NCBI GenBank assembly: GCA_963813335.1
Contig: CAWEYL010000001.1
Span: 686,529 to 750,528, forward strand
From: an uncultured Chloroflexia bacterium
GTDB taxonomy: Bacteria; Chloroflexota; Limnocylindria; Limnocylindrales; CSP1-4
Reading direction: 5' to 3'
DNA length: 64,000 nt
The notes beneath the pieces are model-generated. The model did not search any database. It saw only the letters and a list, made by a program, of their open reading frames with translations, and was not told the DNA's origin. Below, piece by piece: positions 11,850 to 57,771 of the stretch. Numbering within the stretch: position 1 is the first letter of the stretch; each line of letters starts with the position of its first letter. The translations under genes and the position numbers were made by a program.

Positions 11850-12338
11850 ATGACGCAACGCACGAACAAACTGGATCAGCTCCTGCGGGAAGAGATCGGG
11901 TCGATCGTGAGCCGCGATGTCGCGGATCCGCGCGTCGGGTTCGTCACCATCACTAGCGTCGAGACGACGCCGGACCTGCGGCATGCCAAGGTCTGGGTGA
12001 GCGTGATCGGGCAACCGGCGGAGCGGACCGCGGCCATCGCCGCGCTCGGTCGGGCCATGCCGTTCGTCCGCCGCGAGCTGGGCGTCCGGCTGCGCCTCAA
12101 GCGCATCCCGGACCTGCACGTCCACGAGGACGACACGGCGGAGCGGGGGACCCGCGTGCTGCAGCTGCTCAACGACCTCGAGCGCGGCGAGGAGCCCGCC
12201 GTCGACCTCGCGACCGGCGAATCGCTGCCGACCCCCGTCGCCCGCCTGCCGCACGACGGCGACCTCGGCGAGGAGCCGCCCTCGGCGGTGCGCCCGCCGG
12301 TCCGCCGGAAGCGGTCGACCTCGAAGGCGCGCCGGTGA
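11850..12338 (+). CDS. rbfA: ribosome-binding factor A
   Basis: LLREEIGSIVSRDVADPRVGFVTITSVETTPDLRHAKVWVSV is the RbfA signature. It lies downstream of infB and has a charged C-terminal extension. Confidence 0.9.
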   Translation: MTQRTNKLDQLLREEIGSIVSRDVADPRVGFVTITSVETTPDLRHAKVWVSVIGQPAERTAAIAALGRAMPFVRRELGVRLRLKRIPDLHVHEDDTAERGTRVLQLLNDLERGEEPAVDLATGESLPTPVARLPHDGDLGEEPPSAVRPPVRRKRSTSKARR

Positions 12339-13354
12339 CCGTCGATCTCTCGCCATATCTGGACGCGGTCCCGGACATCGTCGTCGAGCGGCTGCGCGCC
12401 GCGCGGCGCGTGCTGGCCGTGGGCCACGAGAACCCGGACGCCGACACGCTCGGGGCCAGCCTCGCGATCGTCCATCTCGTGGAGGCGCTCGGCGGCGCCG
12501 CCGACCCGGTCACGTCCGACCCGCCGCCCCCGCTGTACGACTTCCTGACCGGCGTGGACCGCGTCCGCCGTGACCCGGACCCGGCCGCCGACTACGACCT
12601 CGTCGTGATCTCGGACTGCGGCTCGCTCGAGCGGGTCGGGTCGGTCGGGGTCCGCCATGCGGACCTGTTCGCGCGGGTGCCGCGCATCGTCATCGACCAC
12701 CACGCGTCGAACCAGGTCGAGGGAGACGCCGACTGGGTGGACCCCGACGCCGCCGCGACCTGCGAGATGGTGACGCTGCTCGCGGTCCGTCTCGGCATCC
12801 CGCTCGACATCGACGGCGGGGCCATGGCGACCGCCTTGATGGGTGGCATCGTGATGGATACCGCGACCTTCGCCCACCCGAACGCCACCCCGCGCACCCT
12901 GGCCGTCTCGGCGGCCCTGGTGGCGGCCGGCGCCCCGCTCTCGGACATCTCGAGGCGCCTCTATCGGACCAAGCCGGACACCCAGCTCCGCCTGTTCGGG
13001 CTCGTGCTGGGACGCATGCAGAGCGTGGACGGCGGGCGGATCGTCTGGTCGACCCTCGAGGACGGGGACCTCGTCGAGACCGGCACCCAGCCGCCGCACT
13101 CCGAGGGCATCATCGACCTGCTCGCCCAGGCCGAGGACGCCGAGGTGGCCATCCTGTTCAAGGAGGACGCTCGCGGCACGCGGCTGAGCGTCCGGACCCG
13201 GCCCGGCGGCGTGGACGCGACCGTGCTCACCGGGACGTTCGGCGGGGGAGGGCACGCCCGCGCGGCGGGAGCCACGCTCGCGATGCCGATCGCCGAGGCG
13301 CAGCCGGTCGTCCTGGCCGAGGCGAAGCGGCTCGTGGCCGACGTCCGGCGCTGA
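12335..13354 (+). CDS. nrnA: DHH/DHHA1 phosphoesterase, NrnA-like nanoRNase / pAp phosphatase
   Basis: GHENPDADTLGASLA (DHH motifs I/II), VIDHH, and the DHHA1 GGGH near the C-terminus (FGGGGHARAAGA). GTGA overlap with rbfA. Synteny matches actinobacterial rbfA-cnpB/nrnA. Confidence 0.85.
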   Translation: MTVDLSPYLDAVPDIVVERLRAARRVLAVGHENPDADTLGASLAIVHLVEALGGAADPVTSDPPPPLYDFLTGVDRVRRDPDPAADYDLVVISDCGSLERVGSVGVRHADLFARVPRIVIDHHASNQVEGDADWVDPDAAATCEMVTLLAVRLGIPLDIDGGAMATALMGGIVMDTATFAHPNATPRTLAVSAALVAAGAPLSDISRRLYRTKPDTQLRLFGLVLGRMQSVDGGRIVWSTLEDGDLVETGTQPPHSEGIIDLLAQAEDAEVAILFKEDARGTRLSVRTRPGGVDATVLTGTFGGGGHARAAGATLAMPIAEAQPVVLAEAKRLVADVRR

Positions 13355-15088: not shown

Positions 15089-15607
15089 ATGGCTCGATCG
15101 ATGGAACTCGCCCAGCTCAACGTCGGCCGCATGCTCGCCCCGCTGGACGCCCCGGAGATCGCGGGGTTCGTGGCGGAGCTCGAGCCCGTCAACCGACTCG
15201 CGGACGCAAGCCCCGGCTTCGTGTGGCGACTCCAGACCGATCAGGGGAACGCGACGGCGATGCGCCCGACCGATGACGCCCTGTTCCTCATCAACTTGAG
15301 CGTCTGGGCTTCGATCGAGGCCTTGCGCGCCTTCACGTATGACACGGCCCATATGCAGGTCCTGCGGCGGCGGCGCGAATGGTTCGAGCGGCTCGCGACG
15401 GCCCATCTCGTGTTGTGGTGGGTGCCCGTCGGTCACCGGCCGACGATCGAGGAGGCGCTTGCCCGCCTGGACCTCTTGCGGCGAGACGGCCCGACCCCGG
15501 CGGCGTTCACGTTCCGCACGCCGTTCGAGCCCGATGCGCTGGGGCCCGGCGATCCGCTCGTCGACGCGGAGTTCTGCTGGCCCGAGTTGGCGACGACCCC
15601 GGTCTAG
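15089..15607 (+). CDS. DUF3291 domain protein
   Basis: [43 protein letters not shown] resembles the DUF3291 family N-terminus. About 170 aa. Confidence 0.6.
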
Positions 15608-17234: not shown

Positions 17235-20096
17235 TCAGCCGATGGACGGTTCGCTGGCGGCCGCCAGGGCGTCACGCAGCTGCGATCGCGAACGGATATC
17301 GAGCTTCCGGTAGACGGCCGACAGCTGGCTCTCGACGGTCCGGACGGAGACCACGAGTTCCGCTGCGATCTCGCGATTCGCGTGACCGGCGGCGGCGAGC
17401 TCCGCCACGGCGCGCTCGGACGCGGTCAGGCGGATGCCGTCGGAGGTCCGACCGCCGATCCGGCCAAGCTCGCGGGTCGCCCGGGCGGCCCAGGCGCGTG
17501 CGCCGAGCCCATCGAAGGTCGCCAGCGACGCACCGACGTCCGTGCGCGCCGCCCGGCGGTGTCCGGCCCGCCGCTGGACGGCGCCACGAGCCAGCGATAT
17601 CCGCGCTCGTTCGAAGGGCATCGGCAGTTCGGCGTCGAACACGCTGAGCGCGTCGCCGAATGACGCCACCGCACCGGCGAGATCTCCCCGAGCGGCCAGG
17701 AGGAAGCCGCGGCCGCGGGCCGCCATCGCGCGCACCCACGGCAGCGGCAGTCGGGCGCCCGGCTCCTCAAGGTCCTCGCGCAGCACCCGCTCGGCGAGAT
17801 CGAGTTCGCCGGCGAGCACCGCCGCCTCGACCAGGTCCCCGAGGAACCGGAACTGCGTCGGCAGGACGACGTGCATGGCCTCGGCGTGTTCCTGGGCCTG
17901 GCGGAGGTAGGCGAGTGCGGCTCCTGGATCGGGGACCGAGAGCTCGATGAATCCGAGCAGTGCGCAGAAGATCGCGCTTTCCCAGCGATCGCCCGCGGCT
18001 TCCTCGCGGCGGAGCCCGTCGACGGCGATCGCCCGCGCGGCATCGAGGTCGCCTGAATATGCCAGGATCCGGGCCCTCGCCGTGAGCGCCCGCTGTCGCC
18101 ACGTCTCCTCGCCCTGTTCGACGAGCTCCAGGCATTCGGCGGCATACCGGCGAGCGGCGTCCCAATCGCCGCTCATCAGGCAAAGGACGGAGAGCGACTG
18201 GTCGAGGGGCGGCAGGAGCCCGACCTGACCCAGCTCGGTGAGTCGGCGATGGTCCGCCTCGTCGAAGGCGATGGCCTCCGGCAGCCGGCCGAGATGGAAC
18301 AGGCACCGCTCGGCCAGCTCCTGGGCGCGCCGAGCGCCGAACGAGGTGCCACCGCCACGCATGAGGGCGATGCCCCGATCGATGTCGTCCCCCGCCACGC
18401 GGTCGCCGGCGAGGAGCCAATGGAACGCTCGGTCGAGCAGGGCGCAGGCGAGCTGGTCGGTGTCGGCTTCCAAGACCGCCCCTTCGAGGAGGTCGACCGC
18501 GGCCATGGCGCTGCGGTAGCCGGTCGGCGGGTCCATGTCGGCCATGCTCGTGATGTGGGCGTGGACGAGGGCCTCGAAGATCGGATCGCCGTCGGTGTGC
18601 TCGAGCGCCTCGAGGAGCTGCGGCAACGCGTCGTTGGGCCGCTCCACGTAGGTGATCTCACCAAGGGCCAGCAGGGCCTCCCCACGGCGCCGCCCGGCCG
18701 GCACGGTCGCGAGCACGGCATGCAGGCCGGCCTCACCGCGTCCCGGGTCGCCGGCGGCCACGGCCGCCTCGGCCGCCTCGACGAGGAAGCCGCTCCGGTC
18801 CGGCTCCACAGCCAGGCTCGCGGCTCGCTCGAGAAGGTCCGCGGCCACGCCGGGCGCGCCGCGGGCACCGGCGATCCGCGCCGCGCCGGCGAGGGCGGCG
18901 GCGACGCCAGCGTCGGGTCGCTCGACGGTCGCCGCGAGGTGGATGGCGCGCTCGACCGGGTCGTCGGCGGCGGTGGCGAGCGCGCCGCGCAGGGCTCGAC
19001 GTTCGCCCGGTGGCGCATCTGCGTAGGCCGTCGAGCTGAAGAGCGGATGGGTCGGCCGGATCCGTGACCCGTCGAGGGTGAGGACGCCGCGCTCGAAGGC
19101 CTCGTCGAGTGCCCGGTCGCCGGGCGCGCCGAGCACGCTGCGGATCAGGCTCGGGCTGGGCTCCCCGGACATCGCCACGATGACGACGGCACGGCGCGCG
19201 TCGCGGCTCAGCGTCGCGAGGTGGTCGCGCACGAGCGGACCCGCTTCGGGAGGCACGGGGAACGGTTCGCCCGGCGCGGGATCGAGACCCCGCCCCTTGA
19301 GCGAGCGGCTGATCTCGAGGCCGAGGAACGGGTTGCCCGAACACGCTTCGTGGAGCCGGGCGAGCAGCGGCCTGGGATGGGCCACGTCGAGGCGTTCGTG
19401 GATGAGCCGGCCGAGGGCGCCCACCGACAACGGGCCGACGACGATCCGCGTCCGGTGCTCGACGGCGGTATCCAGTGAGGCGATCGGCGCGAGGGTCGCG
19501 GACAGGTCTCGTCGGTCCGGCGGCCGTTCCGGCGACGCGTAGTCACCGGGTGTCGTCTCGTCCTGGTCGGCCTGGACCGGTCCGGTGCGTCGCGCGAGGA
19601 CGACCGCGACCGGCTCGGACCTGAGCCGCCGTACCGCGAAGGCGAGCGCGTCCTGGCTGGCCCGATCGGCCCACTGGATGTCGTCGATCGCCAGGACGAG
19701 TGGGCGATCGCGAGCGAGGTCCCGCAGGACGTCGGCGACGGCGAGGCCCACGAGCGACGGGTCCGAGTGGGTGCCGAGCGACGCACCTCGGCCCATGGCC
19801 GCCGAGATGGCCGCCCGCCGGGGGCTGTTCAGCAGCTCGATCGCGGCCTCGGCGGCAGGGTCGTCGAGGAGGGCGGTAAGGGTGGCGAACGCCAGGTCGC
19901 GCTCGGCGATGCTGGCGCGCCAGGCGAGGACGCGGTCCGCGCGCGTCCGGGCGACGGCGACGGCATGGAACCAGAGAGTGGTCTTGCCGATGCCGGCTTC
20001 GCCTTCGATGAGCAGGCAGGACGGCCGCGCCTCCTCGAGCCATCGCGCGATCGCCGATCGCTCCGCTTCCCGCCCGACGACGATCGTCCCCGGCAT
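17235..20096 (-). CDS. large ATP-binding LuxR-family regulator (LAL: AAA/STAND ATPase - TPR-like - LuxR HTH)
   Basis: Walker [15 protein letters not shown], Walker [13 protein letters not shown], a long helical repeat middle, and C-terminal [43 protein letters not shown]. The start is uncertain: ATG 20096, or upstream alternatives up to 20297. Confidence 0.88.
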
Positions 20097-20235
20097 CACG
20101 ACGTTCGCCAGATCCGGTGCATCGACCACGCCTCCGCGCCGATGGTACCGAAGCCGCGTCAGTATCTTTCGGTGGTCGCACGGATGCGATGACCCGACGG
20201 TTTCGGGCGACGCACGATCGTCGAGCGGCCCGCGT

Positions 20236-20264
20236 TTGCCGCAACCGGCCGAGCCTGCTACCAT
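20236..20264 (+). promoter_or_regulatory. candidate rpsO promoter (TTGCCG-17 nt-TACCAT)
   Basis: Hexamers at 20236-20241 and 20259-20264, about 55 nt upstream of the rpsO GTG, within the divergent region shared with the LAL regulator. Confidence 0.35.
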
Positions 20265-20317
20265 CCGCCGGTCATAGATCGGAAAGAAACAGCACATCGC
20301 CGTGTTCGGAGGAACGA

Positions 20318-20587
20318 GTGCCGCTCGCGCGGGAATTGAAGCAAGAGATCATCACCGGGTATGCCACCACTGAAGGTGACACCGGTTCGCCGGAAGTCCA
20401 GATCGCGCTCCTGACCGAGCGGATCAAGGACCTGACCGGGCATCTCCGAAGCTTTCCCAAGGACAATCATTCGCGCCGCGGCCTCCTCAAGCTCGTCGGC
20501 CAGCGCCGCCGCCTTCTCGCGTACCTGATGAAGAAGGACAGCGCGCGCTACCGCGTCGTCATCGGACGACTCGGACTCCGCCGCTAG
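20318..20587 (+). CDS. rpsO: 30S ribosomal protein S15
   Basis: [51 protein letters not shown] is canonical S15. GTG 20318 is preceded by GGAGGA. Confidence 0.95.
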
Positions 20588-20600
20588 CGACGCCGCTCCC

Positions 20601-20623
20601 GGACCCCGGTCATGCCGGGGTCC
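20601..20623 (+). promoter_or_regulatory. perfect 9-bp stem-loop in rpsO-pnp intergenic region (terminator/processing/autoregulatory hairpin)
   Basis: GGACCCCGG (20601-20609), loop TCATG, CCGGGGTCC (20615-20623). No clear U-tract follows. Confidence 0.55.
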
Positions 20624-20707
20624 TCTCGCGTTCGACGCCAGATGGCCGAGTCGGCCGACCTGCCGCAGGTCGCCAGCCTCCTCCACGGTCAAGGAGGATC
20701 GATTCCC

Positions 20708-23290
20708 TTGTCTCACACGTTCGAGACGCAGATCGGTGGTCGCACGCTGACCATCGAGACCGGCAAGCTCGCGCGCCTCGCCGGCGGCGCCGTCACCGTC
20801 CGCTACGGTGACACCCTGGTGCTCGGCACCGCCAACCGCTCGGATCCCCGCCCGGGCCTCGACTTCTTCCCGCTCACGGTCGAGTTCGAGGAGCGCATGT
20901 ACGCCGCGGGCAAGATCCCGGGCGGCTTCATCAAGCGCGAGGCGCGCGCGTCGGAGGCGGCCACCCTGGCCGCCCGCCTGACCGACCGCCCCATCCGCCC
21001 GCTCTTCCCCGAGGGCTACAAGGACGACATCCAGCTCGTCATCACCGTGCTCTCGACCGACCAGGAGAACGAGCCCGACGTGCTCGGCACGACGGCCGCC
21101 TCGGCCGCGCTGAGCATCAGCGAGATCCCGTTCGCGGGACCTGTCGGCGCCGTCCGCGTCGGCCGCATCAACGGCGAGTTCGTGGTCAACCCCACCTACA
21201 GCGAGCTCGCCGAGTCGGAGCTGGACCTGATCGTCTCCGGTACCCGCGACGCGATCATGATGGTCGAGGCGGGCGCCAAGCTCCTGCCCGAGGACGTGAT
21301 GGCCGAGGCCATCCTGTTCGGCCATCGCGCGCTGCAGCCGCTCATCGATATCCAGGAAGAGCTCCGCGCGGCCGTCGGCAAGGCGAAGAGCACCCCGTAC
21401 CTCGAGCCGGGCACCGGCTCGGTGCTCGACTACACGAAGGCCGTCGCCGCGGGCGATACGTTCGTCGTGGTCGACGTCGAGACCACCGGCACGGACCCGA
21501 AGATGGCCGACCTCGTCGAGATCGCCGCGGTGAAGGTCCAGGGCGGCAAGATCGTCGACCGCTGGTCGACGCTCGTGAACCCGGGCCGGCCGATCCTCGG
21601 CCACCAGATGCACGGCATCACCGACGCGGACGTCAAGAAGGCCCCCAAGCCGGCCGACGCCGCGAAGGACGCCCTCAAGTTCATCGGCGACTCGCTGGTC
21701 GTGGGGCACTCGGTCGGGTTCGACCTCGGCTTCATCGAGGCCGCGCTCGGCGACGGGACGCACTTCGAGCAGGGCCGCTACCTCGACACCCTGGTCCTCG
21801 CCCGCGAGGGCTACCCGGACCTCGAGAACTACAAGCTCGGGACGCTGTCGAACTTCTTCGGTATCGAGCTCGCCCAGTCGCACCGGGCCGGCCCCGACGC
21901 CGAGGCGACCGCCAACCTGCTGATCTGGTTCGGGAACGACCTGCCGGGCCGCATCGCGGCCCTCAAGGCGGGGATCGCGGATTCGGTCCGGGCCAACCGG
22001 ACCGGCGGCGACCCGAAGGCGATCCTCGAGGCCGCCCGCCGCGAGGCCCGCGTCTCGAAGGGCCTCTACAACCTGCTCTTCAAGAAGACCTGCCGCGAGC
22101 TGGCCCTCGACGAGGGCATCCGGATGGACGGCCGCGGCCTGACGGAGCTCCGCCAGATCTCGGTCGAGGTGGGCCTCCTCCCGCGGGCGCACGGCTCCGG
22201 CCTCTTCACCCGCGGCGAGACCCAGGTCATGACGATCGCGACGCTCGGCGCGTCCTCGGACGTGCAGCGCATCGACACGATCAGCCCCAAGACCGAGAAG
22301 CGCTACATCCACCACTACAACTTCCCGCCCTATTCGACGGGTGAGAACAAGCCGATGCGCGGCCCCAGCCGGCGCGACATCGGGCACGGCAACCTCGCCG
22401 AGCGGGCGCTCGTCCCGGTCCTCCCGGACCACGACGAGTTCCCGTACGTCATCCGCCTCGTGTCGGAGTGCATGTCGTCCAACGGCAGCACCTCGATGGC
22501 CTCGACCTGCGGCTCCACCCTCGCCCTCATGGACGCGGGCGTGCCGATCAAGGCACCGGTCGCCGGTGCGGCGATGGGCCTCATCAGCGAGCCGGACGGC
22601 CGCTTCGTCGTCCTGACCGACATCCTCGGCAAGGAGGACTCGGTGGGTGACATGGACTTCAAGGTGACCGGCACGCGGGACGGCATCACCGCCCTGCAGA
22701 TGGACATCAAGGTCCAGGGCATCAACGAGGCGATCATCCGCAACGGCCTCAAGCAGGCCCTCGCGGCGCGCCTCGAGATCCTCGACAAGATGACCTCGGT
22801 CATGCCCGAGGCCCGTGTGGAGATGAGCGACTTCGCGCCGCGCATCATCACCATCAAGATCAACCCGGAGAAGATCCGCGAGATCATCGGCAAGGGCGGA
22901 TCGATGATCCGCAAGATCCAGGAAGAGACCCAGACCGAGATCAACGTCGAGGACGACGGCACCGTGGAGATCGCGGCCGTCTCCGGCGAGAACTCGCGCA
23001 AGGCGATCGACTGGATCAACAGCCTGACCCGTGAGGTCGAGGTGGGCGCGCTCTACATGGGCAAGGTCACCCGCATCATGGGCTTCGGCGCCTTCGTCGA
23101 GATCATGCCCGGCAAGGAAGGCCTGGTCCGCATCGGCGAGCTCGCCGACTACCACGTTCCCACCGTCGAGGACGTCGTGTCCGTCGGCGACGAGATCATG
23201 GTCGTCGTGATGGAGATCGACCGCCAGGGCCGCGTCAACCTCTCCCGCCGCGCCGCGATGCAGCGCCACCTGGCGAAGGATCCCGCCTAG
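20708..23290 (+). CDS. pnp: polyribonucleotide nucleotidyltransferase (PNPase) carrying an inserted DEDDh exonuclease domain
   Basis: RNase PH core 1 (FFPLTVEFEERMYAAGKIPGGFIKREARAS), core 2 (RMDGRGLTELRQISVEVGLLPRAHGSGLFTRGETQ...SNGSTSMASTCGSTLALMDAGVP...DMDFKVTGT), KH (GKGGSMIRKIQEE) and S1 (GKVTRIMGFGAFVEI). TTG 20708 lies 10 nt after AAGGAGG; ORF-track start is 20612. Confidence 0.93.
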   Translation: MSHTFETQIGGRTLTIETGKLARLAGGAVTVRYGDTLVLGTANRSDPRPGLDFFPLTVEFEERMYAAGKIPGGFIKREARASEAATLAARLTDRPIRPLFPEGYKDDIQLVITVLSTDQENEPDVLGTTAASAALSISEIPFAGPVGAVRVGRINGEFVVNPTYSELAESELDLIVSGTRDAIMMVEAGAKLLPEDVMAEAILFGHRALQPLIDIQEELRAAVGKAKSTPYLEPGTGSVLDYTKAVAAGDTFVVVDVETTGTDPKMADLVEIAAVKVQGGKIVDRWSTLVNPGRPILGHQMHGITDADVKKAPKPADAAKDALKFIGDSLVVGHSVGFDLGFIEAALGDGTHFEQGRYLDTLVLAREGYPDLENYKLGTLSNFFGIELAQSHRAGPDAEATANLLIWFGNDLPGRIAALKAGIADSVRANRTGGDPKAILEAARREARVSKGLYNLLFKKTCRELALDEGIRMDGRGLTELRQISVEVGLLPRAHGSGLFTRGETQVMTIATLGASSDVQRIDTISPKTEKRYIHHYNFPPYSTGENKPMRGPSRRDIGHGNLAERALVPVLPDHDEFPYVIRLVSECMSSNGSTSMASTCGSTLALMDAGVPIKAPVAGAAMGLISEPDGRFVVLTDILGKEDSVGDMDFKVTGTRDGITALQMDIKVQGINEAIIRNGLKQALAARLEILDKMTSVMPEARVEMSDFAPRIITIKINPEKIREIIGKGGSMIRKIQEETQTEINVEDDGTVEIAAVSGENSRKAIDWINSLTREVEVGALYMGKVTRIMGFGAFVEIMPGKEGLVRIGELADYHVPTVEDVVSVGDEIMVVVMEIDRQGRVNLSRRAAMQRHLAKDPA
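21455..21949 (+). other. DEDDh (DnaQ/RNase T-like) 3'-5' exonuclease domain inserted in the PNPase alpha-helical linker
   Basis: ExoI FVVVDVETTG, NPGRPI..HQMHGITDADV, ExoII LVVGHSVGFDLGFI and ExoIII SHRAGPDAEATANL. In frame, with host-like GC3 codon usage and no intein-type junction residues. Confidence 0.85.
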
Positions 23291-23406: not shown

Positions 23407-26361
23407 GTGCTCCCCCGGCTCCGGGCGGACCATCCGCGGGGTGACCGAGTGACCGAGCGATCACGCGGGATCGTGAGTTCGCGTCTCAGTCCGGTCATGG
23501 TCGGGCGAGACGCATTCGTCGACCAGGCCGAGCACCTCCTCGGGAGTGTCCTCGCCGGTGACGGCCGCTTCCTGCTCCTCGCGGGCGAGGCTGGCATCGG
23601 CAAGACACGCCTGGTCGATGCGATCGAGCGGCAGGCTGCCGCGATGGGCTTCCGCCACATCCGCGGCCAGTCGTTCCTGGAGGATCGGGAGGTACCGGGG
23701 GCGCCGTTCCTCGACCTGGCCGGTGCGATGTCCCGCGACGCGGGATTCGCCGGCACGGGCGCTGACCTGGCGGCCCACCTCCGGCTGATCGAGGCGGACG
23801 AGGACCTCACCGGCCCGCGTCGTCGTCGTCAGCTCGTCCTCGACGTCGTCGACGTGCTCGTGTCGGTCGCACCGCCGCCTACCGTGATCGCCATCGAGAA
23901 CCTGACGGACGCCGATGAGCTGAGTCTTGAGATCCTCGCCCGCCTCGCGCGGCAACTCCCCGGTCGCCCGCTCCTGGTCGTCGGCACCTATCGAAGCGAC
24001 GAACTCTATCCGCGCGTCCCGCTGCGCGATTGGCGGGCGAGGCTCCTCACTGGTCGTCTCGTCGAGGAGATCCAACTCGGGCGGCTGTCGCGCGCGGAGA
24101 CCGCCCAGATGACCAGCGTGATCCTCGACCAGGCTGCGGCCCCCTCGAGCGACATGCTCGACGCGGTGTACGAGCGGACCGACGGCATCCCGTTACACGT
24201 GGAGGAGTTGCTCGGGGTCATCCTCGAACAGCATCGTGCCGACCACGATGCCGTCCTGGCCGCAGACGTCCCGGACACGCTCGACGAGGTCGCACGACAG
24301 CGCATCGACGCCCTGTCGGTCGACGCCCAGCGCCTCGTCCGGGCCGCGTCCGTCATCGGGCACGACTTCGACCTCGATCTCCTGGCCGCGCTGGTACGGT
24401 CGACGGTCGACGAGGTCTGGCCAGCCGTCGCCGAGCTGCTCGACCAATTCATCCTCATCTCGGCCGGCGCGCAGGACCGCTATGGGTTCCGCCACGCATT
24501 GATCCGGGACGCCATCTACCAGGAGGTTCCCGTCCCGGACAAGGTGCGGCTCCATCGCCTCGTCGCAGAGCTGCTCGACGAACGAGGCGATGCGTCCGAT
24601 GCCTTCCTGTCACATCACTACGAACAGGCTGGCGTGCGCGAGGAGGCATTCCACGCCGCCATGCGCGGAGCCAGGGCCGCCGCGGCGATCTCGTCCCACC
24701 GTGCGGCGTTCGCGCTCTATCAACGTGCCCGTCGTCAGCTGCCGAATGACCTGCCGCTGCCAGAACAGGCGGCGATCCACGCCGCCCTCGCCGCCGAGGC
24801 GGCGGCGAGCGATGACAACGCGGTGTCGTCGGAGGCCTATGCCGCGGCGCGCGAGCGATACGTCGACGCGGGCGCGATCCTCGAAGCGGCGAGCTTGATC
24901 AGCCCGATGGTCGCGGTCCGACACCTCCTCGGCGACAGCCTCGATGTTCGGCTCGAGATGCTCCGCCAGGCGATCGCCGACGTGGAAGAGCTGCCGTCCG
25001 ACGTCGAGACGACGCGCGTCCGGGGGCGTCTGCTCGCCAGTCTGGCCAACACCCACATGTACGACCTCCGCGTCGTGGAGGCTCGGCGGTACGCGGAGGA
25101 AGCTCGGGCGCTTGCGGATGGGGCCGCTGACGCCGCGACCGGCCTCGATGCGCGAATCACCATCGCGAATGCGCTGTTGTTCGAAGGGCGGGTCGGCGAA
25201 GGAACGGAGTTGGGATGGTCCACCATCCGTGACGCTCGTTCGGCCCAGCTCGAGGTCGAGGCCTCGCGCTGCTATCGGATGCTTGGCTCGTCATCCTCGG
25301 AGGTCGTCGAATACGAGCGCGGCGAGCGGCTCTTCCGTGAGGGGATCGAATACGCGGAACGAGTCGAGCGCTGGAACGACCGCCACTACATGGCTGCCCA
25401 CCTCGGACTCATCCTGTGGGCGACCGGTCGCTGGCGCGAGGGCTGGGACCTCGCCGAGCGGGCCCTCGTCGATGGACGGCCGGGCATCACCACGCGGATC
25501 ACGGCGTCGTATGTCCTCGGGTACATCGCCATGGGGCGGGGCGACTGGGAGCGGGCCAGGCAGCTGCTGCAGGGATCGCTGGAACTCGGCGAGCCGATGG
25601 GCGAGATCCTGCGGACCTCGCTGGCACGCTGGGGTCTCGCAGAGACCGCGCTGCTGACCGGCGATGCACGAGCGGCCCTCGAGCTCGCACGACGAGGCCG
25701 CGCGGCGTCAGAGGCCGTCGGGGATGCCGCGCTCCTGTTTCCGTTCCTCGTGACCGGGACACGGGCTCACCTTGCCGTCGCGGATCCGGCCGGTGCCGAA
25801 CGATGGGTCGATGAGCTTGAGAGCGAACTCCGTCGGACAGCCATCTCGGGCACGCTCCCGGCGATCGACCATGCCCGAGGGCTGGTCCTGGCGGCGGCGG
25901 GCGCGACGACCCTGGCGCGAGAGGCGCTCGAGGTCGCGGTTCGCGGATGGGACACGGCAGGTCGCGTCTGGGAGGGGACCTGGGTCAAGCTCGACCTCGC
26001 GTCCGTCCTGTTCCGGATCAACCGGGTCGCCGCCGCGGTCGCATTGGTGGAGGATGTCCGCTCCATCGGTGACCGCCTGGGCAGCCGCCCGCTGGTCGAG
26101 CGGGCGTCGGAGTTGCTGCGCGCGACCCGAGCGCGCCGGGGCGCCGAGGAGCCGTGGCGTCCCCTGACGGCTCGGGAGTTCGAGGTCGCCAAGCTGATCG
26201 TCGCGGGGCGGACGAACGCCGAGATCGCCGTCGAGCTGGACATCTCCCCGAGAACGGCGAGCTCCCACGTCGAGCACATCCTCACCAAGCTCGGCGTCGC
26301 GCGCCGTACCGAGATCGCGGTCTGGGCGTCGGCCGTGTTGCGGCAGGACGGAGGACCGTGA
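23407..26361 (+). CDS. large ATP-binding LuxR-family regulator (LAL)
   Basis: Walker [15 protein letters not shown], Walker B-like VIAIENLTDADE, a helical repeat region, and C-terminal LTAREFEVAKLIVAGRTNAEIAVELDISPRTASSHVEHILTKLG. The start is uncertain (GTG 23407, GTG 23449 or ATG ~23497). Confidence 0.88.
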   Translation: MLPRLRADHPRGDRVTERSRGIVSSRLSPVMVGRDAFVDQAEHLLGSVLAGDGRFLLLAGEAGIGKTRLVDAIERQAAAMGFRHIRGQSFLEDREVPGAPFLDLAGAMSRDAGFAGTGADLAAHLRLIEADEDLTGPRRRRQLVLDVVDVLVSVAPPPTVIAIENLTDADELSLEILARLARQLPGRPLLVVGTYRSDELYPRVPLRDWRARLLTGRLVEEIQLGRLSRAETAQMTSVILDQAAAPSSDMLDAVYERTDGIPLHVEELLGVILEQHRADHDAVLAADVPDTLDEVARQRIDALSVDAQRLVRAASVIGHDFDLDLLAALVRSTVDEVWPAVAELLDQFILISAGAQDRYGFRHALIRDAIYQEVPVPDKVRLHRLVAELLDERGDASDAFLSHHYEQAGVREEAFHAAMRGARAAAAISSHRAAFALYQRARRQLPNDLPLPEQAAIHAALAAEAAASDDNAVSSEAYAAARERYVDAGAILEAASLISPMVAVRHLLGDSLDVRLEMLRQAIADVEELPSDVETTRVRGRLLASLANTHMYDLRVVEARRYAEEARALADGAADAATGLDARITIANALLFEGRVGEGTELGWSTIRDARSAQLEVEASRCYRMLGSSSSEVVEYERGERLFREGIEYAERVERWNDRHYMAAHLGLILWATGRWREGWDLAERALVDGRPGITTRITASYVLGYIAMGRGDWERARQLLQGSLELGEPMGEILRTSLARWGLAETALLTGDARAALELARRGRAASEAVGDAALLFPFLVTGTRAHLAVADPAGAERWVDELESELRRTAISGTLPAIDHARGLVLAAAGATTLAREALEVAVRGWDTAGRVWEGTWVKLDLASVLFRINRVAAAVALVEDVRSIGDRLGSRPLVERASELLRATRARRGAEEPWRPLTAREFEVAKLIVAGRTNAEIAVELDISPRTASSHVEHILTKLGVARRTEIAVWASAVLRQDGGP

Positions 26362-26525: not shown

Positions 26526-27635
26526 ATGTCCTCGATGAACCCGAACGCCCTCACCGTCGCCGTCGTCGGCGCCACCGGCGTCGTCGGCCGGACGATGATC
26601 ACCGTCCTCGGCGAGCGCGAGTTTCCCGTCGGGGAGCTGCGCCTCCTCGCGTCGGGCCGCTCGGCCGGACGCACCGTGTCGGTCGACGGCCGGACCATCG
26701 AGATCGGCGAGGCCGTGCCCGACGCCTTCGACGGCGTCGACATCGCGCTCTTCTCGGCCGGCGCCGACGTCTCGCGCGAGCTCGCGCCGGCCGCCGCCGC
26801 ACGAGGCGCCACCGTCATCGACAACTCGTCGGCATGGCGCATGGACCCATCGATCCCGCTGGTCGTCTCGCAGGTGAACCCCGACGACCTCGAGGGGCAC
26901 CAGGGCATCATCGCCAACCCCAACTGCTCGACGATGCAGCTCGCGCCGGTGCTCATGGCCCTGCGCGACAGCGTCGGGCTGGAGCGGGTCGTCGTCGACA
27001 CCTACCAGTCGGTCTCCGGCACCGGCGCGGAGGCCATCGCCGAGCTGGAATCCCAGATCCGCGCCCATGTGACCGGGGAGCCGCTCCGGGCCGAGGTCTA
27101 CCCGCACCCGATCGCCTTCAACGCGCTGCCCGAGATCGACGTCTTCCTCCCCAACGGCTACACGAAGGAGGAGTGGAAGGTCGTCAGCGAGGACCGCAAG
27201 ATCCTGGGACTGCCGGACCTGCGGATCTCGTGCACGGCGGTGCGCATCCCCGTATTCGTGAGCCACTCCGAGGCGGTCCACGTCGAGACGCGCGACCCGA
27301 TCTCCCCGGAGCGCGCCCGCGCGCTGTTCGCCGCCGTCCCGGGCGTGGTGGTCCAGGACGAGCCGGCCACCCACGACTACCCGCTCGCGACGGGCGCCGC
27401 GGGGCGCGACGAGATCTTCGTCGGGCGCGTCCGCCGCGACCCCTCGATCCCGCACGACCGCGGGCTCGCGCTGTGGATCGTCTCCGACAACCTGCGCAAG
27501 GGCGCGGCCACGAACGCGGTCGAGATCGCCGAGATCCTGGTCGCGCGGCACTGGGTCGAGCACGCGTCGGCACGAGGCGCCCGTCCGTACCGGGCGCTCG
27601 AGCCGGTGGGGGTCTCCGGGGGGAGCGGAGGGTGA
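26526..27635 (+). CDS. asd: aspartate-semialdehyde dehydrogenase
   Basis: VAVVGATGVVGRTM, the active-site NPNCSTMQL and SGTGAEAI motifs, and SDNLRKGAATNAVEIAE. Confidence 0.93.
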   Translation: MSSMNPNALTVAVVGATGVVGRTMITVLGEREFPVGELRLLASGRSAGRTVSVDGRTIEIGEAVPDAFDGVDIALFSAGADVSRELAPAAAARGATVIDNSSAWRMDPSIPLVVSQVNPDDLEGHQGIIANPNCSTMQLAPVLMALRDSVGLERVVVDTYQSVSGTGAEAIAELESQIRAHVTGEPLRAEVYPHPIAFNALPEIDVFLPNGYTKEEWKVVSEDRKILGLPDLRISCTAVRIPVFVSHSEAVHVETRDPISPERARALFAAVPGVVVQDEPATHDYPLATGAAGRDEIFVGRVRRDPSIPHDRGLALWIVSDNLRKGAATNAVEIAEILVARHWVEHASARGARPYRALEPVGVSGGSGG

Positions 27636-28373
27636 CCGACGCCGAGCGCCAGGCGGCGCTCGAGGCCATCGCGGCCGAGGTCCGCGACTGCACGCGCTGC
27701 CGGCTCCATGTCGGCCGGACGCGGTCCGTGCCAGGGGAGGGGAACCCCTCCACGGAGGTCGTGTTCGTCGGCGAGGGCCCGGGCTTCAACGAGGACCGCC
27801 AGGGCCGGCCCTTCGTCGGGCGGGCCGGCGACCTGCTGGTCAAGCTCCTCGGCTCGATCGGCTGGCGTCGCGAGGACGTCTTCATCACCAACATCGTCAA
27901 GTGCCGCCCGCCCGACAACCGCGACCCGGAGCCCGACGAGATCGCGGCCTGCGCGCCGTACCTGGTCCGCCAGCTGGAGATCCTCGATCCGGCGATGGTC
28001 GTGACCCTGGGCCGCCACTCGATGGGCCGGTTCATGCCCGGCGCGCGCATCTCGCAGGCGCACGGGACGGTCCGACCGGCCGATCCCGGGACCGGCGCCC
28101 GGGACGCGCTGGTCGTTGCGATGTACCACCCGGCGGCGGCGCTCCGGACCCCGGCCATCGAGCGCGACGAGCTACGCCGACGCCGCCACGATCCCGGCCG
28201 TCCTGCTGGACGCGCGGGCGCGCAGGGCGGACCATGCGAGAAACGCCCGTCAGGAGCCCATCACCGAGCCGGTGCCGACCGGCCCGCTCGACGAGACGAC
28301 CACGGTCGTCGCCCCGCCGCCGCCCGATCCCGCGACCGCGACCGCCGACGCCGACCAGTTGACCTTGTTCTAA
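27632..28373 (+). CDS. family 4 uracil-DNA glycosylase, frame interrupted (+1 change needed at about 28160-28175); C-terminal tail ends QLTLF
   Basis: CTRCRLH...VPGEGNP..EVVFVGEGPGFNEDRQGRPFVGRAGDLL...ITNIVKCRPP.NRDP...C..YL...HPAAALR are family-4 UDG motifs in the 27632 frame. The plausible C-terminus YADAATIPAVLLDAR...DQLTLF* is in the frame of ORF 28116..28373. The original frame runs on as Arg-rich out-of-frame translation into rnj. Confidence 0.85.
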
Positions 28374-28440
28374 CCCGCTACAGGAACCGAATGCCACCAC
28401 CACCGACGAGAATCCGCTCCGCATCATCCCGCTCGGCGGG

Positions 28441-30063
28441 GTGGGCGAGATCGGCAAGAACATGTACGTGTTCGAGTACCGCGACGAGATCGTGGTCATC
28501 GACTGCGGCCTGATGTTCCCCGACGAGGAGATGTTCGGCATCGACCTCGTCATCCCCGATATCAGCTACCTCAAGGAACGCCGCCACATGGTCAAGGCGT
28601 TCCTCATCACCCACGCCCACGAGGACCACGTCGGCGGCCTGCCGTACGTGCTCCCCGAGTTCCCGGGCGTGCCGGTCTACGCCTCGACGCTCGCCCGCGG
28701 CCTGCTCGGCAACAAGATCAAGGAGCACAAGCTCCACAACAACCCGGTCCTCGCCCTCGACCCCGGCGAGGAGCTGGACATCGGCGCGTTCCACGTGATC
28801 CCGTTCCGGGTCGGCCATTCCATCCCGGACGCGATGGGCATCGCCCTGCGCACGCCGGTCGGGACCATCGTCCACACCGGGGACTTCAAGTTCGACCACA
28901 CCCCCGTCGACGGCAAGCTGTCGGACTTCGCGATCCTGGCCCGGCTGGGGCAGGAGGGGGTCATCTGCCTCCTGTCGGACTCGACCCGTGCCGAGAACCC
29001 GGGCTACACGCCGTCCGAGCGGACGGTCGGCGACGCGTTCCGCGAGATCATGGAGCCGCTCGAGGGGCGCGTGATCGTCGCCACGTTCGCGAGCAACATC
29101 GCCCGCGTCCAGCAGGTCCTCGACGCCGCCAGCGACATGGGCCGGAGCGTCTCGGTCATCGGCCGCTCGATGGAGCAGAACTTCAAGATCGCGACGGACC
29201 TGGGCTACCTCAAGTACGACGCGTCGATGATCGTCTCGAAGGACAAGATCAAGGACCACCCCGACGCCCAGCTCGTGATCGCCACGACCGGCGCCCAGGG
29301 CGAGCCGATGGCCGGCCTGGCGCGGATGGCCAACCGCGACCACCGCTTCGTGGAGATCCAGCCCGGCGACACCGTCATCGTCAGCGCGAGCCCGATCCCC
29401 GGCAACGAGGAGTACGTCTCGCGGACCATCGACAACCTGTTCAAGGCCGGGGCGAACGTCTACTACCACACGATCAAGCGCGCGCACGTCTCCGGGCACG
29501 CCAGCCAGGAGGAGCTCAAGCTGATGCTCGGGCTGACCAAGCCCAAGCACTTCATCCCCATGCACGGCGAATTCCGGATGCAGGTCCAGCACGGGCGCCT
29601 GGCGATCGAGACCGGGGTCAAGCCGGAGGACGTGTTCATCATCGAGAACGGGACGCCGATCGAGCTCTTCGCCGACGGGTCCGCCCGGCGCGGGAGCCCG
29701 GTCACGGCCGGGTACGTCTTCGTCGACGGCCTCTCGGTCGGCGAGGTCGGCGAGATCGTCCTGCGCGACCGCCGGTCGCTCGCGAACGACGGGATGTTCA
29801 TGATCGTGGTGACCGTCGACAAGCAGACGGGCTCGGTCGTCGGGCGGCCCGAGATCGTGACCCGCGGCTTCGTCCACCTCAACGAGAAGGACCCGATCAT
29901 GGCCGAGGCCGTCGAACGCGTGATGAGCGCCATCGACACGCCCGGCGACCACATCAGTGAGATCGCCCTGCTCAAGACCCAGGTCAAGGACGCCGTCTCG
30001 CGCTACCTGTACGAGCAGACCAAGCGGCGGCCGATGGTCTTCCCCGTCGTGGTGGAGGTCTAG
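28441..30063 (+). CDS. rnj: ribonuclease J (start probably upstream, see findings)
   Basis: GEIGKNMYVFEY, the MBL motif THAHEDHVGGLPY, beta-CASP and C-terminal domains. The conserved NPLRIIPLGG strand is encoded in frame just upstream of GTG 28441 without a canonical start. Confidence 0.9.
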   Translation: MGEIGKNMYVFEYRDEIVVIDCGLMFPDEEMFGIDLVIPDISYLKERRHMVKAFLITHAHEDHVGGLPYVLPEFPGVPVYASTLARGLLGNKIKEHKLHNNPVLALDPGEELDIGAFHVIPFRVGHSIPDAMGIALRTPVGTIVHTGDFKFDHTPVDGKLSDFAILARLGQEGVICLLSDSTRAENPGYTPSERTVGDAFREIMEPLEGRVIVATFASNIARVQQVLDAASDMGRSVSVIGRSMEQNFKIATDLGYLKYDASMIVSKDKIKDHPDAQLVIATTGAQGEPMAGLARMANRDHRFVEIQPGDTVIVSASPIPGNEEYVSRTIDNLFKAGANVYYHTIKRAHVSGHASQEELKLMLGLTKPKHFIPMHGEFRMQVQHGRLAIETGVKPEDVFIIENGTPIELFADGSARRGSPVTAGYVFVDGLSVGEVGEIVLRDRRSLANDGMFMIVVTVDKQTGSVVGRPEIVTRGFVHLNEKDPIMAEAVERVMSAIDTPGDHISEIALLKTQVKDAVSRYLYEQTKRRPMVFPVVVEV

Positions 30064-56055: not shown

Positions 56056-57771
56056 ATGGCTGGTGAATTCGACATCGTTGGCTCGAACGCGGCCGCGCGC
56101 TTCAGTCTGCGGGTGCACCGCGGCGAGGGGATGGCCCTGCTCGCCATGGACTGGCGGAACGGCCAGCCGCCGGCCGACTTCGTCGGGTTCTCGATCGAGT
56201 ATCGACCGCCCAGCAGCCTGTCCTTCTTCGCCCTGAGCAACCGGTTGGCCTTCACGACCGCACCGGCCAACGTCGGCCCGAACCCGAAGTCCACGCTGTT
56301 CGCCCCGATCCAGAAGTTCCGCTGGGTCCATTTCCCGTATGACCCCGAGCAGACGGGCGCGTATCGCTACCGGGTCCGCCCGGCATTCATGGACGCCGGG
56401 CGCACGATCACCTGGGGCGACGCCCAGGAGGTCGACATCGAGCTGCGTCGGGAGACCTACCCGGGGGTGCTGAACGTCGCCTTCGCCCGGGGCTTCGTCT
56501 CGTCGCAGGCGTTCGTCGACCGCTACGAGAGCGCCGGCAAGATCTCGACCCTGCTGCCGTCGACCGCGGCCAAGGGGCTGACGTTCCAGCCGACGCATCC
56601 GAAGACCGCCGACGCGCTCGCATGGATGGGGTTCGAGGCGCGGAGCGCGATCCTGCAGGTGCTCGACGAGGCGATCGCCGACGTCAGCGCCGAGGTGCGG
56701 GTCGTGGCGTACGACCTGAACGAGCCGGAGATCGTCGGCCGGCTCGAGCAGCTCGGCGCGCGGCTCAAGGTCATCATCGACGACGACGGCGACCACGGCG
56801 CCGCGGGGTCGGCCGAGGACCAGGCGGAGGCGAGGCTGAAGGTCAGCGCCGGATCGACCCACGTCAAGCGCCAGCACATGGGCAAGCTGCAGCACAACAA
56901 GACGATCGTGGTCCAGGGCGACAGCGTCCAGGCCGTCGTCTGCGGCTCGACGAACTTCTCCTGGCGCGGCCTGTACGTCCAGGCCAACAACGCGATCGTC
57001 CTGCGCGGCATCAAGCCGGCCAAGGTCTTCCGGACGGCGTTCGACGGCTACTGGGCGAAGGGCGTGCCCGCCACGTTCGGGGTGACCCTCTCGACGAGCT
57101 GGCGCGACCTGGGGCTGCCCGGCATCGACGCGAAGGTCTCGTTCTCCCCACACGCCTCGTCCAATGCCCGGCTCAAGGCGGTGTCGGACGACATCGGGCT
57201 CGCCTCGTCGAGCGTCCTCTACTCGCTGGCGTTCCTGTACATGACGACCAAGGGGCCCGTGTTCGACGCCATCAAGAAGGTCACGGACGACCCCGACATC
57301 TTCGTCTACGGCATGTCCGACAAGAAGGTCGGCGGCGGGATCGACATGCAGCTCCCCGACGGCAAGGTCGCGCCGCTGAGCCCCCAGGCGCTCACCGAGC
57401 ACGTCCCGCAGCCGTTCAAGCGCGAGCCGAGCGCGGCCGGCGGGGTGCGGATGCATCACAAGTTCGTGGTCATCGATTTCGACAAGCCGACCGCCCGGGT
57501 GTACACGGGCTCGTACAACTTCTCCGGCGCCGCGGATCTCGACAACGGCGAGAACCTGGTCCGCATCCGCGACCGGCGGATCGCCGTCGCGTACATGGTC
57601 GAGGCGCTGCGCCTGTTCGACCACTACCACTTCCGCGTGAAGCAGCTCGACGCGGCGACGGCGGCGACGACCCTTGAGCTCAAGGAGCCGCCGACCGCCG
57701 GGAACGCCGCGTGGTGGCTGGAGGACTACACGGACCCGGTCAAGATCCGCGACCGGAAGACGTTCGCGTGA
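56056..57771 (+). CDS. phospholipase D-family protein with two HKD motifs and an N-terminal beta-rich domain
   Basis: HKD-1 is LQHNKTIVVQG....CGSTNFS (the Asp position is Gln). HKD-2 is MHHKFVVIDF......TGSYNFSGAADLDNGENL. ATG 56056 follows GGAGGGG. Confidence 0.8.
   Translation: MAGEFDIVGSNAAARFSLRVHRGEGMALLAMDWRNGQPPADFVGFSIEYRPPSSLSFFALSNRLAFTTAPANVGPNPKSTLFAPIQKFRWVHFPYDPEQTGAYRYRVRPAFMDAGRTITWGDAQEVDIELRRETYPGVLNVAFARGFVSSQAFVDRYESAGKISTLLPSTAAKGLTFQPTHPKTADALAWMGFEARSAILQVLDEAIADVSAEVRVVAYDLNEPEIVGRLEQLGARLKVIIDDDGDHGAAGSAEDQAEARLKVSAGSTHVKRQHMGKLQHNKTIVVQGDSVQAVVCGSTNFSWRGLYVQANNAIVLRGIKPAKVFRTAFDGYWAKGVPATFGVTLSTSWRDLGLPGIDAKVSFSPHASSNARLKAVSDDIGLASSSVLYSLAFLYMTTKGPVFDAIKKVTDDPDIFVYGMSDKKVGGGIDMQLPDGKVAPLSPQALTEHVPQPFKREPSAAGGVRMHHKFVVIDFDKPTARVYTGSYNFSGAADLDNGENLVRIRDRRIAVAYMVEALRLFDHYHFRVKQLDAATAATTLELKEPPTAGNAAWWLEDYTDPVKIRDRKTFA

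Follow-up and report, generated by a model that had tools for sequence, protein, structure and literature searches.

Domain organization of the pnp product

The DNA analysed here is a stretch of 64,000 nucleotides (the window) from contig CAWEYL010000001.1 of an uncultured Chloroflexia bacterium. It carries a pnp gene whose predicted product is a polynucleotide phosphorylase (PNPase) with a DEDDh-type 3'-5' exonuclease domain inserted into its all-alpha linker. An open reading frame at 20612..23290 on the forward strand was confirmed in the window, and the gene itself (20708..23290, +) starts at TTG 20708 and ends with the stop codon 23288-23290. A strong Shine-Dalgarno sequence, the consensus AAGGAGG, is located about 8 nt 5' of this TTG. 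The spacing of the Shine-Dalgarno sequence and the lengths of the close homologues (860-866 aa) support the 860-aa product that the first-pass annotation of this DNA had read from the same codon. All residue numbers given below refer to the 860-aa frame starting at TTG 20708.

The domains found by Pfam in the fusion protein are two copies each of RNase_PH and RNase_PH_C, one RNase_T (PF00929), KH_1 and S1. Pfam and the alignment with PNPases of solved structure agree that the order RNase PH1 - helical linker - RNase PH2 - KH - S1 is kept and that the insert interrupts the linker. The PNPase model TIGR03591 of NCBIfam matches with 936.5 bits (cut-off 525) in two stretches that are divided by the insert, and NF008805 matches the whole fusion protein with 934 bits (cut-off 471). 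In the comparison with PDB sequences, residues 8-234 of the fusion correspond to residues 10-237 of E. coli PNPase and residues 457-853 to 300-695. By all three comparisons both RNase PH cores, KH and S1 are intact and colinear with canonical PNPase, as had been stated earlier.

The first RNase PH-like core comprises residues 1-235 (20708..21412, +; RNase_PH and RNase_PH_C in Pfam) and carries the FIKR channel loop at residues 74-77. It is followed by the N-terminal junction, residues 236-249 (21413..21454, +), by the inserted DEDDh (DnaQ-like) exonuclease domain, residues 250-408 (21455..21931, +), and by the rest of the all-alpha linker, residues 409-470 (21932..22117, +). The second RNase PH-like core, residues 471-700 (22118..22807, +; RNase_PH in Pfam), contains the phosphorolytic site. 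Its phosphate loop, SNGSTSMAS (nt 22478-22504), and its metal-binding segment, DILGKEDSVGDMDFKV (nt 22619-22666), both align to the respective motifs of the E. coli and staphylococcal PNPases. The region of KH_1 (E 5.9e-11) and S1 (E 4.9e-17) extends over 22808..23287 (+).

The identity of the insert is well defined at the level of its superfamily. PF00929 (RNase_T) matches residues 253-405 (nt 21464-21922), within the interval 21455-21949 given in the first-pass annotation, with E 6.5e-26 and 92-94 bits against a cut-off of 24, covering positions 1-164 of the 164 in the profile. The dnaq domain model TIGR00573 of NCBIfam scores 84.7 with the insert alone, against a cut-off of 71.5. Residues ~250-408 match the exonuclease domain of PolC (2p1j, E 1e-23), the DinG exonuclease and DnaQ among the PDB sequences. 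The four motifs quoted in the first-pass annotation are all present. Exo I, FVVVDVETTG, begins at residue 252 (nt 21461-21490) and provides the catalytic residues D256 and E258; MHGITDADV begins at residue 301; Exo II, VVGHSVGFDLGF, begins at residue 331 (nt 21698-21733) and provides D339; Exo III, SHRAGPDAEA, begins at residue 391 (nt 21878-21907) and provides H392 and D397. A profile search had been proposed as a check of the annotation, and it places a full-length RNase_T match between the PNPase domains, with the catalytic residues unsubstituted.

The readings of the exonuclease and linker structure rest on a sub-model that covers residues 225-475 only (mean predicted local distance difference test score, pLDDT, 87.8; predicted template modelling score 0.84). 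In this sub-model the junction contains the first short helix of the all-alpha linker (237-247), which is followed by an alpha/beta exonuclease fold that begins with strand 252-259 and ends with helix 377-384. The helix of Exo III then runs on unbroken as a 39-residue helix (394-432), after which come helices 436-447 and 451-469. Helix 451-469 corresponds to the last linker helix of the E. coli enzyme in the sequence alignment, and the match with the C-terminal linker helices of the solved PNPases sets in at residues 430-457. It follows from this order of helices that the domain is inserted after the first short all-alpha helix. As the E. coli linker has 62 residues and that of the fusion 222, the net insertion is about 160 aa. 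The earlier description of an insert of ~165 aa at residues 250-414 that splits the linker is correct as to the insertion and the all-alpha domain that receives it. The extent is now residues ~250-408, and the position is near the N-terminal end of the linker rather than in the middle of the domain. The exonuclease fold and the linker helices are confidently predicted to form one rigid unit by means of the continuous helix.

In a Foldseek search the nearest fold is the exonuclease of S. aureus DinG (E 3e-12). PolC, a CRISPR-associated DnaQ and the Pol III epsilon subunit match with target template modelling (TM) scores of 0.72-0.79 and, for most of them, root-mean-square deviations of ~2.4-2.5 Å, and RNase T, ExoX, REXO2 and Orn are ranked below these DnaQ-type domains. 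The sub-model and the fold matches assign to the insert the RNase H-like alpha/beta fold of the DnaQ type. In NCBIfam the insert does not approach the equivalog cut-off of any named DEDDh enzyme: the top match at this level is NF005906 (152.8 vs 495), with DinG (134 vs 789) and PolC (132 vs 873) far below their cut-offs as well, and no RNase T or Orn model is among the families listed for it. Of the initial designation "DnaQ/RNase T-like", the complete DEDDh domain stands, and its type is that of DnaQ, PolC and DinG rather than of RNase T. By sequence profiles and predicted fold, the fusion is thus a member of both the PNPase family and the DEDDh/DnaQ-like superfamily.

Distribution, conservation and origin of the fusion

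The same colinear protein is present in more than 120 protein clusters. The proteins of the best 120 database clusters are 845-866 aa long and 84-91% identical, and all of them contain PF00929 and the PNPase domains. The assemblies bearing the fusion come from JGI, ENA, NCBI and Logan, with contigs of up to 2.8 Mb. When GTDB species representatives were scanned with the junction-plus-insert alignment, at least 15 loci matched across both junctions with 57-89% identity; beyond these, among the matches listed, the identity falls sharply to 47% or less and only the exonuclease domain is matched. The titles of the relatives give Chloroflexota, Ca. Limnocylindrales (of the class Ca. Limnocylindria, phylum Chloroflexota) or generic Chloroflexia or Anaerolineae metagenome-assembled genomes (MAGs). 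A survey of long PNPases had been suggested at the outset, and such proteins have indeed been found, in Chloroflexota or Ca. Limnocylindrales where a taxon is named. Two discordant taxon labels, on contigs of 2.2 kb and 16 kb, are probably binning errors. Among the full-length examples P0123 diverges most, with an overall identity of 70%; it is colinear and has intact motifs and the same insertion point. Its upstream gene is rpsO, and its contig has 61% GC compared to 72% in the window.

The search was extended to 1.84 billion cluster representatives with a junction-plus-insert query of 315 aa, which gave 73 proteins at E < 1e-30. All of the junction-spanning matches that were examined belong to the fusion clade, many of them as frameshifted fragments, and the other matches cover the exonuclease part only. 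An independent PNPase-DEDDh fusion outside the clade was not found among the 150 best representatives, in which the junction-spanning matches are at least 39% identical and appear to be the same clade or its frameshifted copies. Matches with two or three matched stretches were rejected, being unrelated tandem-DEDD proteins of the GIY-YIG, BRCT and DinG types.

Most of the divergent representatives of the 50%-identity clusters are frameshifted or truncated copies of the fusion gene. Long P/R/S-rich stretches translated in the wrong frame occur in P0128, P0136, P0150, P0156, P0157, P0178 and P0191. Such frameshifted representatives make the family look more diverse than it is and would lead automated surveys astray. 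Many fusions (for example P0001, P0009 and P0011) are labelled "DNA polymerase III epsilon subunit family exonuclease" by JGI, a misannotation caused by the inserted domain; otherwise the fusions are annotated in public databases as plain PNPase.

Conservation was followed in an alignment of 130 fusion proteins (the window protein, the 120 clusters, P0123 and eight loci). D256, E258, H392 and D397 are invariant, and D339 is present in 129 of the 130. The family-typical positions of QMHGI, GH..GFD and HRA..DAE are kept in 129-130 of the sequences, P0123 included, and so many also keep the FIKR channel loop. In the second core G593-S599, D638, D644, D648, D650 and K652 are invariant in all 130. 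The segment 236-471 has 234-239 aa throughout the alignment, in which no segment of the protein is less conserved than the junction 236-249 (mean identity to the window protein 0.59). Judged from these alignments, the PNPase keeps all the residues required for phosphorolysis and for two-metal hydrolysis.

The ratio of nonsynonymous to synonymous divergence (omega, by the Nei-Gojobori method, between the window and eight species-level relatives) lies between 0.17 and 0.58 in the insert, compared with 0.05-0.37 in the PH cores and 0.18-0.75 in the linker helices; the values are approximate and probably inflated, because the extreme G+C content of third codon positions (GC3, ~0.95-1.0) compresses the synonymous divergence. 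By this sequence measure purifying selection acts on the insert, which diverges in step with the host gene, as expected under vertical co-inheritance: the identity is 90% in the insert and 94-97% in the host gene for the relative L001, and 55% and 82-83%, respectively, for L014. In GC3 the insert (0.987) is close to the rest of the gene (0.95-0.98), and the codon preferences of the two are correlated with r = 0.95, in agreement with the original observation that the insert is in frame and has the GC3-rich codons of its host.

The gene has the canonical rpsO-pnp synteny. In the window, the array nusA, infB, rbfA, DHH/DHHA1, truB, ribF is followed by two inserted genes and a LuxR-type regulator, and then by rpsO and pnp. 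In the relative L081, on a contig of 2.8 Mb, the array is uninterrupted and reads nusA-infB-rbfA-DHH-truB-ribF-rpsO-pnp(fusion)-asd-RNase J-ftsK. The gene upstream of pnp in the relatives encodes PF00312, Ribosomal_S15, of 89-98 aa. No second PNPase core is encoded within the 64-kb window. Gene order and content indicate that the fusion is the housekeeping PNPase of the cell, and presumably its only one.

Beyond the fusion clade, the insert is most similar to a set of DEDDh modules, with 35-47% identity. They belong to DinG-like helicases (L016, L046), Cho-like DnaQ-GIY-YIG proteins (L017, L040, L044, L051), VRR-NUC-DEDDh proteins (L018, L022, L028), a PolC (L049) and small stand-alone proteins (L032, L037), and the NCBIfam ranking agrees with relatives of the DinG/DnaQ/PolC type. 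Taken at the level of sequence matches, the insert is a promiscuous DnaQ-type 3'-trimming module that has repeatedly been fused to enzymes of DNA metabolism. The three VRR-NUC-DEDDh proteins, which are 730-790 aa long and come from Verrucomicrobiales and Gammaproteobacteria, have the DEDDh domain at the C-terminus, and their upstream motifs resemble a VRR-NUC/FAN1-like nuclease region. They represent another fusion of this portable exonuclease module.

Proposed function and its alternatives

Canonical PNPases (TIGR03591; E. coli 3CDI and 7OGK, S. antibioticus 1E3H, C. crescentus 4AM3) share with the fusion the PH cores, the linker, KH and S1, the phosphate and metal residues of PH2 and the rpsO-pnp operon, but they lack the ~160-residue DEDDh domain that the fusion carries after the first linker helix. 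According to a 2022 review, the PNPases of all organisms share the RPH1-AAHD-RPH2-KH-S1 plan (PMC8836086). PNPase is one of the best conserved enzymes of RNA decay, and as this five-domain plan is called universal, a lineage-wide DEDDh-bearing variant is unexpected. No description of a PNPase with an inserted DEDD, DnaQ or RNase T domain was found in the full-text literature, in which subscription journals are thinly covered, most of their papers lying outside it, so that an earlier mention is possible. A 2026 comparative genomics study of 236 Limnocylindria MAGs mentions neither PNPase nor exonucleases (PMC13212565). The architecture, a fusion of two well-known modules, is public in the databases and apparently undescribed; the first-pass annotation, too, knew of no described PNPase of this kind.

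In the sub-model the insert has the same fold (TM 0.76-0.79, root-mean-square deviation ~2.4 Å) as the exonucleases of DinG (8ZEF), PolC (2P1J, 9QPC), PRK07883, Cas2-DEDDh (8FY9) and Pol III epsilon (1J53). Like the fused modules of the DnaQ family, it carries all three Exo motifs, the fifth residue being H, and it shares their habit of serving as a portable 3'-trimming module. The hosts of those modules are polymerases, helicases, nucleases and an integrase, whereas the host of the insert is a phosphorolytic RNase ring. Those modules are terminal and that of the fusion is internal, and the identity between them does not exceed 47%. A further functional analogue is the division of labour in sequential pathways of PNPase and a DEDDh oligoribonuclease: E. 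coli Orn, and REXO2 next to human mitochondrial PNPase, are described as DEDDh enzymes that clear short oligonucleotides after a phosphorolytic or processive exonuclease (PMC6613908, PMC3669425). In these pathways, however, the two activities reside in separate proteins; the insert of the fusion is not Orn/REXO2-like in sequence, and these enzymes rank lower by fold.

The reading favoured here, with somewhat better than even confidence, is that the fusion acts as a bifunctional phosphorolytic and hydrolytic 3'-5' exonuclease, in which the DEDDh module would hydrolyse the 3' ends that PNPase releases or cannot finish. By combining the sequence of the fusion with what is known about the E. coli enzyme, this process can be described in outline. 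The helical domain of E. coli PNPase is dynamic and is located on the face of the torus opposite to KH/S1, where it contributes to a pore that offers another way into the PH2 active site, probably for nucleoside diphosphates (NDP) and phosphate (PMC2723993). As the helical domain faces away from KH/S1 in the solved PNPases, the three hydrolytic sites of the trimer are expected on the exit face. The trimer would then be an exonuclease of two chemistries, with the hydrolytic sites away from the RNA entry cap and each module placed beside the side pore that leads to the PH2 active site.

The DEDDh module would remove 3'-terminal nucleotides by hydrolysis, independently of phosphate and irreversibly. 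Its substrates would be single-stranded 3' ends, for example short limit oligonucleotides; PNPase degradation leaves a short oligonucleotide product (PMC11572968). The substrates might also include the NDP-derived tails added by PNPase itself at low phosphate. Net decay would then continue whatever the ratio of inorganic phosphate to NDP. Since DNA and the RNA strand of hybrids are substrates of its relatives, the module probably accepts the 3' ends of single-stranded DNA (ssDNA) too.

Several observations weigh against this reading. The closest relatives of the insert are modules of DNA metabolism, and the DinG exonuclease prefers ssDNA and cuts free single-stranded RNA only with Mn2+ (PMC12525004). 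The evolutionary rate of the insert is similar to that of the linker and exceeds that of the PH cores. An NrnA-like DHH/DHHA1 gene, encoding a putative nanoRNase or phosphodiesterase, lies between rbfA and truB at 12335-13351 (+) and has the same place in L081. Its presence nearby, noted already in the first-pass annotation, is real, and as it provides a candidate for the task, it mildly weakens a nanoRNase role of the insert. Finally, in the full-length AlphaFold2 monomer the PH cores have a pLDDT of only ~22-30. This weakness is due to the shallow input alignment, which consisted of 25 sequences with 84-91% identity, and a fold search with the poor full-length model gave only PNPases with TM scores of ~0.2.

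The same DNA-metabolism relatives lead to a second explanation, rather unlikely as the main role though still to be taken seriously, that the module serves PNPase in DNA transactions: trimming of ssDNA 3' ends in recombination, repair of double-strand breaks, or removal of R-loops and hybrids. The KH and S1 domains would be the binding platform, and the module would perform Mg2+-dependent cleavage of DNA or hybrids. The best family, sequence and fold matches are all DEDDh modules of DNA metabolism (PRK07883 DnaQ-GIY-YIG, DinG, PolC, DnaQ/epsilon, Cas2-DEDDh and VRR-NUC fusions); the DinG exonuclease breaks down ssDNA and, in hybrids, the RNA strand (PMC12525004); and 3'-5' ssDNA exonuclease and repair functions have been described for PNPase in B. 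subtilis and E. coli (PMC2709576, PMC3241651, PMC5379764). Against this, the gene is presumably the housekeeping pnp next to rpsO, its elements for RNA binding and phosphorolysis are intact, and it lies in a conserved array without DNA-repair neighbours. DEDDh enzymes are, moreover, often lax towards the sugar, the RNase T structures in the fold list carry DNA, and no DNA exonuclease matched the insert with more than 47% identity. The RNA-decay and DNA roles are not mutually exclusive.

It is improbable that the insert is mainly structural or regulatory, acting as a lid on the pore of the helical domain that gates NDP and phosphate or as a dock for a partner, with a weak or irrelevant nuclease. 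The dynamic helical domain is thought to govern the access of NDP and phosphate (PMC2723993), the insert forms a rigid unit with the linker helices in the sub-model, and insert and linker evolve faster than the cores, all of which would suit such a role. A purely structural domain would not, however, be expected to have invariant catalytic residues, and the five DEDDh residues and the family-typical motifs are kept in nearly every fusion protein, including P0123. An assembly chimera, an intein or a recent mobile element can hardly be credited at all. The same junctions are seen independently in assemblies from JGI, ENA, NCBI and Logan; the frame is continuous, with the GC3 and codon usage of the host gene; the insert is under purifying selection and diverges in parallel with its host. 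The frameshifted database representatives reflect the quality of the assemblies and not the architecture, and they lend no support to an artefact. An intein or mobile element was rejected as the identity of the insert because the Pfam scan contains no Hint, intein or homing-endonuclease family, the composition is host-like and the frame is conserved across the clade. The first-pass annotation had likewise taken the insert to be free of intein features and the gene to be an old, functional fusion. The clade-wide architecture, the divergent P0123, the rpsO-pnp synteny, the selection and the invariant residues all agree with that view.

The bifunctional exonuclease favoured above invites comparison with the eukaryotic exosome (Exo-9, Rrp44, Rrp6), which likewise combines an RNase PH-type ring, an S1/KH cap and hydrolytic nucleases. 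Rrp6 is an enzyme of the DEDD superfamily. The exosome has a catalytically inactive ring, with the RNB/PIN and DEDDy nucleases as subunits of their own, whereas the fusion keeps the phosphorolytic residues and has its DEDDh domain covalently inserted. The hydrolytic nucleases of the exosome dock opposite the cap, on the face equivalent to that of the PNPase helical domain (PMC2807030, PMC2723993). The exosome is the nearest functional analogue of the fusion, by analogy only and not by homology of the arrangement. That the fusion works as an exosome-like single polypeptide, in which the ring phosphorolyses RNA and can pass a threaded or released 3' end to the DEDD nuclease of the exit face, is a doubtful proposition. 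If true, the cell could choose, depending on the levels of phosphate and NDP, between phosphorolysis, which conserves energy, and hydrolysis, which is irreversible, and the fusion would be convergent with the step thought to lead from PNPase-like rings to the hydrolytic exosome.

The fusion can be regarded as a natural experiment in which phosphorolytic and hydrolytic 3'-5' decay, a combination otherwise known from the eukaryotic exosome, would be coupled in one machine. It could explain RNA turnover or DNA 3'-end processing under varying phosphate in Limnocylindria, an abundant, uncultivated class of soil and freshwater bacteria, and it offers a ready-made scaffold for PNPase engineering.

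The rpsO-pnp leader and neighbouring genes

The gene preceding pnp, rpsO, encodes ribosomal protein S15 of 89 aa from GTG 20318 (20318..20587, +), as indicated by its S15-like translation and by a GGAGG located 5 nt upstream. Between the two genes lies a leader of the pnp message (20588..20707, +) with a predicted minimum free energy of -58.2 kcal/mol (z = -2.3 relative to shuffled sequences). RNA folding places a 10-bp G+C hairpin just behind the stop codon of rpsO (20601-20623) and a second hairpin at ~20679-20698, in which CCUCCUCC pairs with the GGAGG of the pnp Shine-Dalgarno sequence. Judged from this predicted folding, the leader may be an attenuator or an element of translational autoregulation similar to the pnp leader of E. 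coli.

The rpsO-pnp pair is flanked by two AAA_16 + LuxR/GerE regulators of ~1000 aa each, at 17235-20294 (-) and 23407-26358 (+). Both regulators, a DUF3291 gene (15089-15604) and unassigned open reading frames break the ribF-rpsO-pnp-asd synteny that is seen in L081. Further downstream, a 559-aa protein (26834-28510, +) has a UDG-superfamily domain only at residues 300-446; its N-terminal part of ~300 aa and its C-terminal tail have no Pfam match, and its length is unusual for the family. A second DEDD-like match in the window, at 57175-57582 (-), was rejected (tblastn, 26% identity, E 8e-4); it lies in a 558-aa open reading frame without a Pfam family and is probably due to chance in a sequence of such high GC content.

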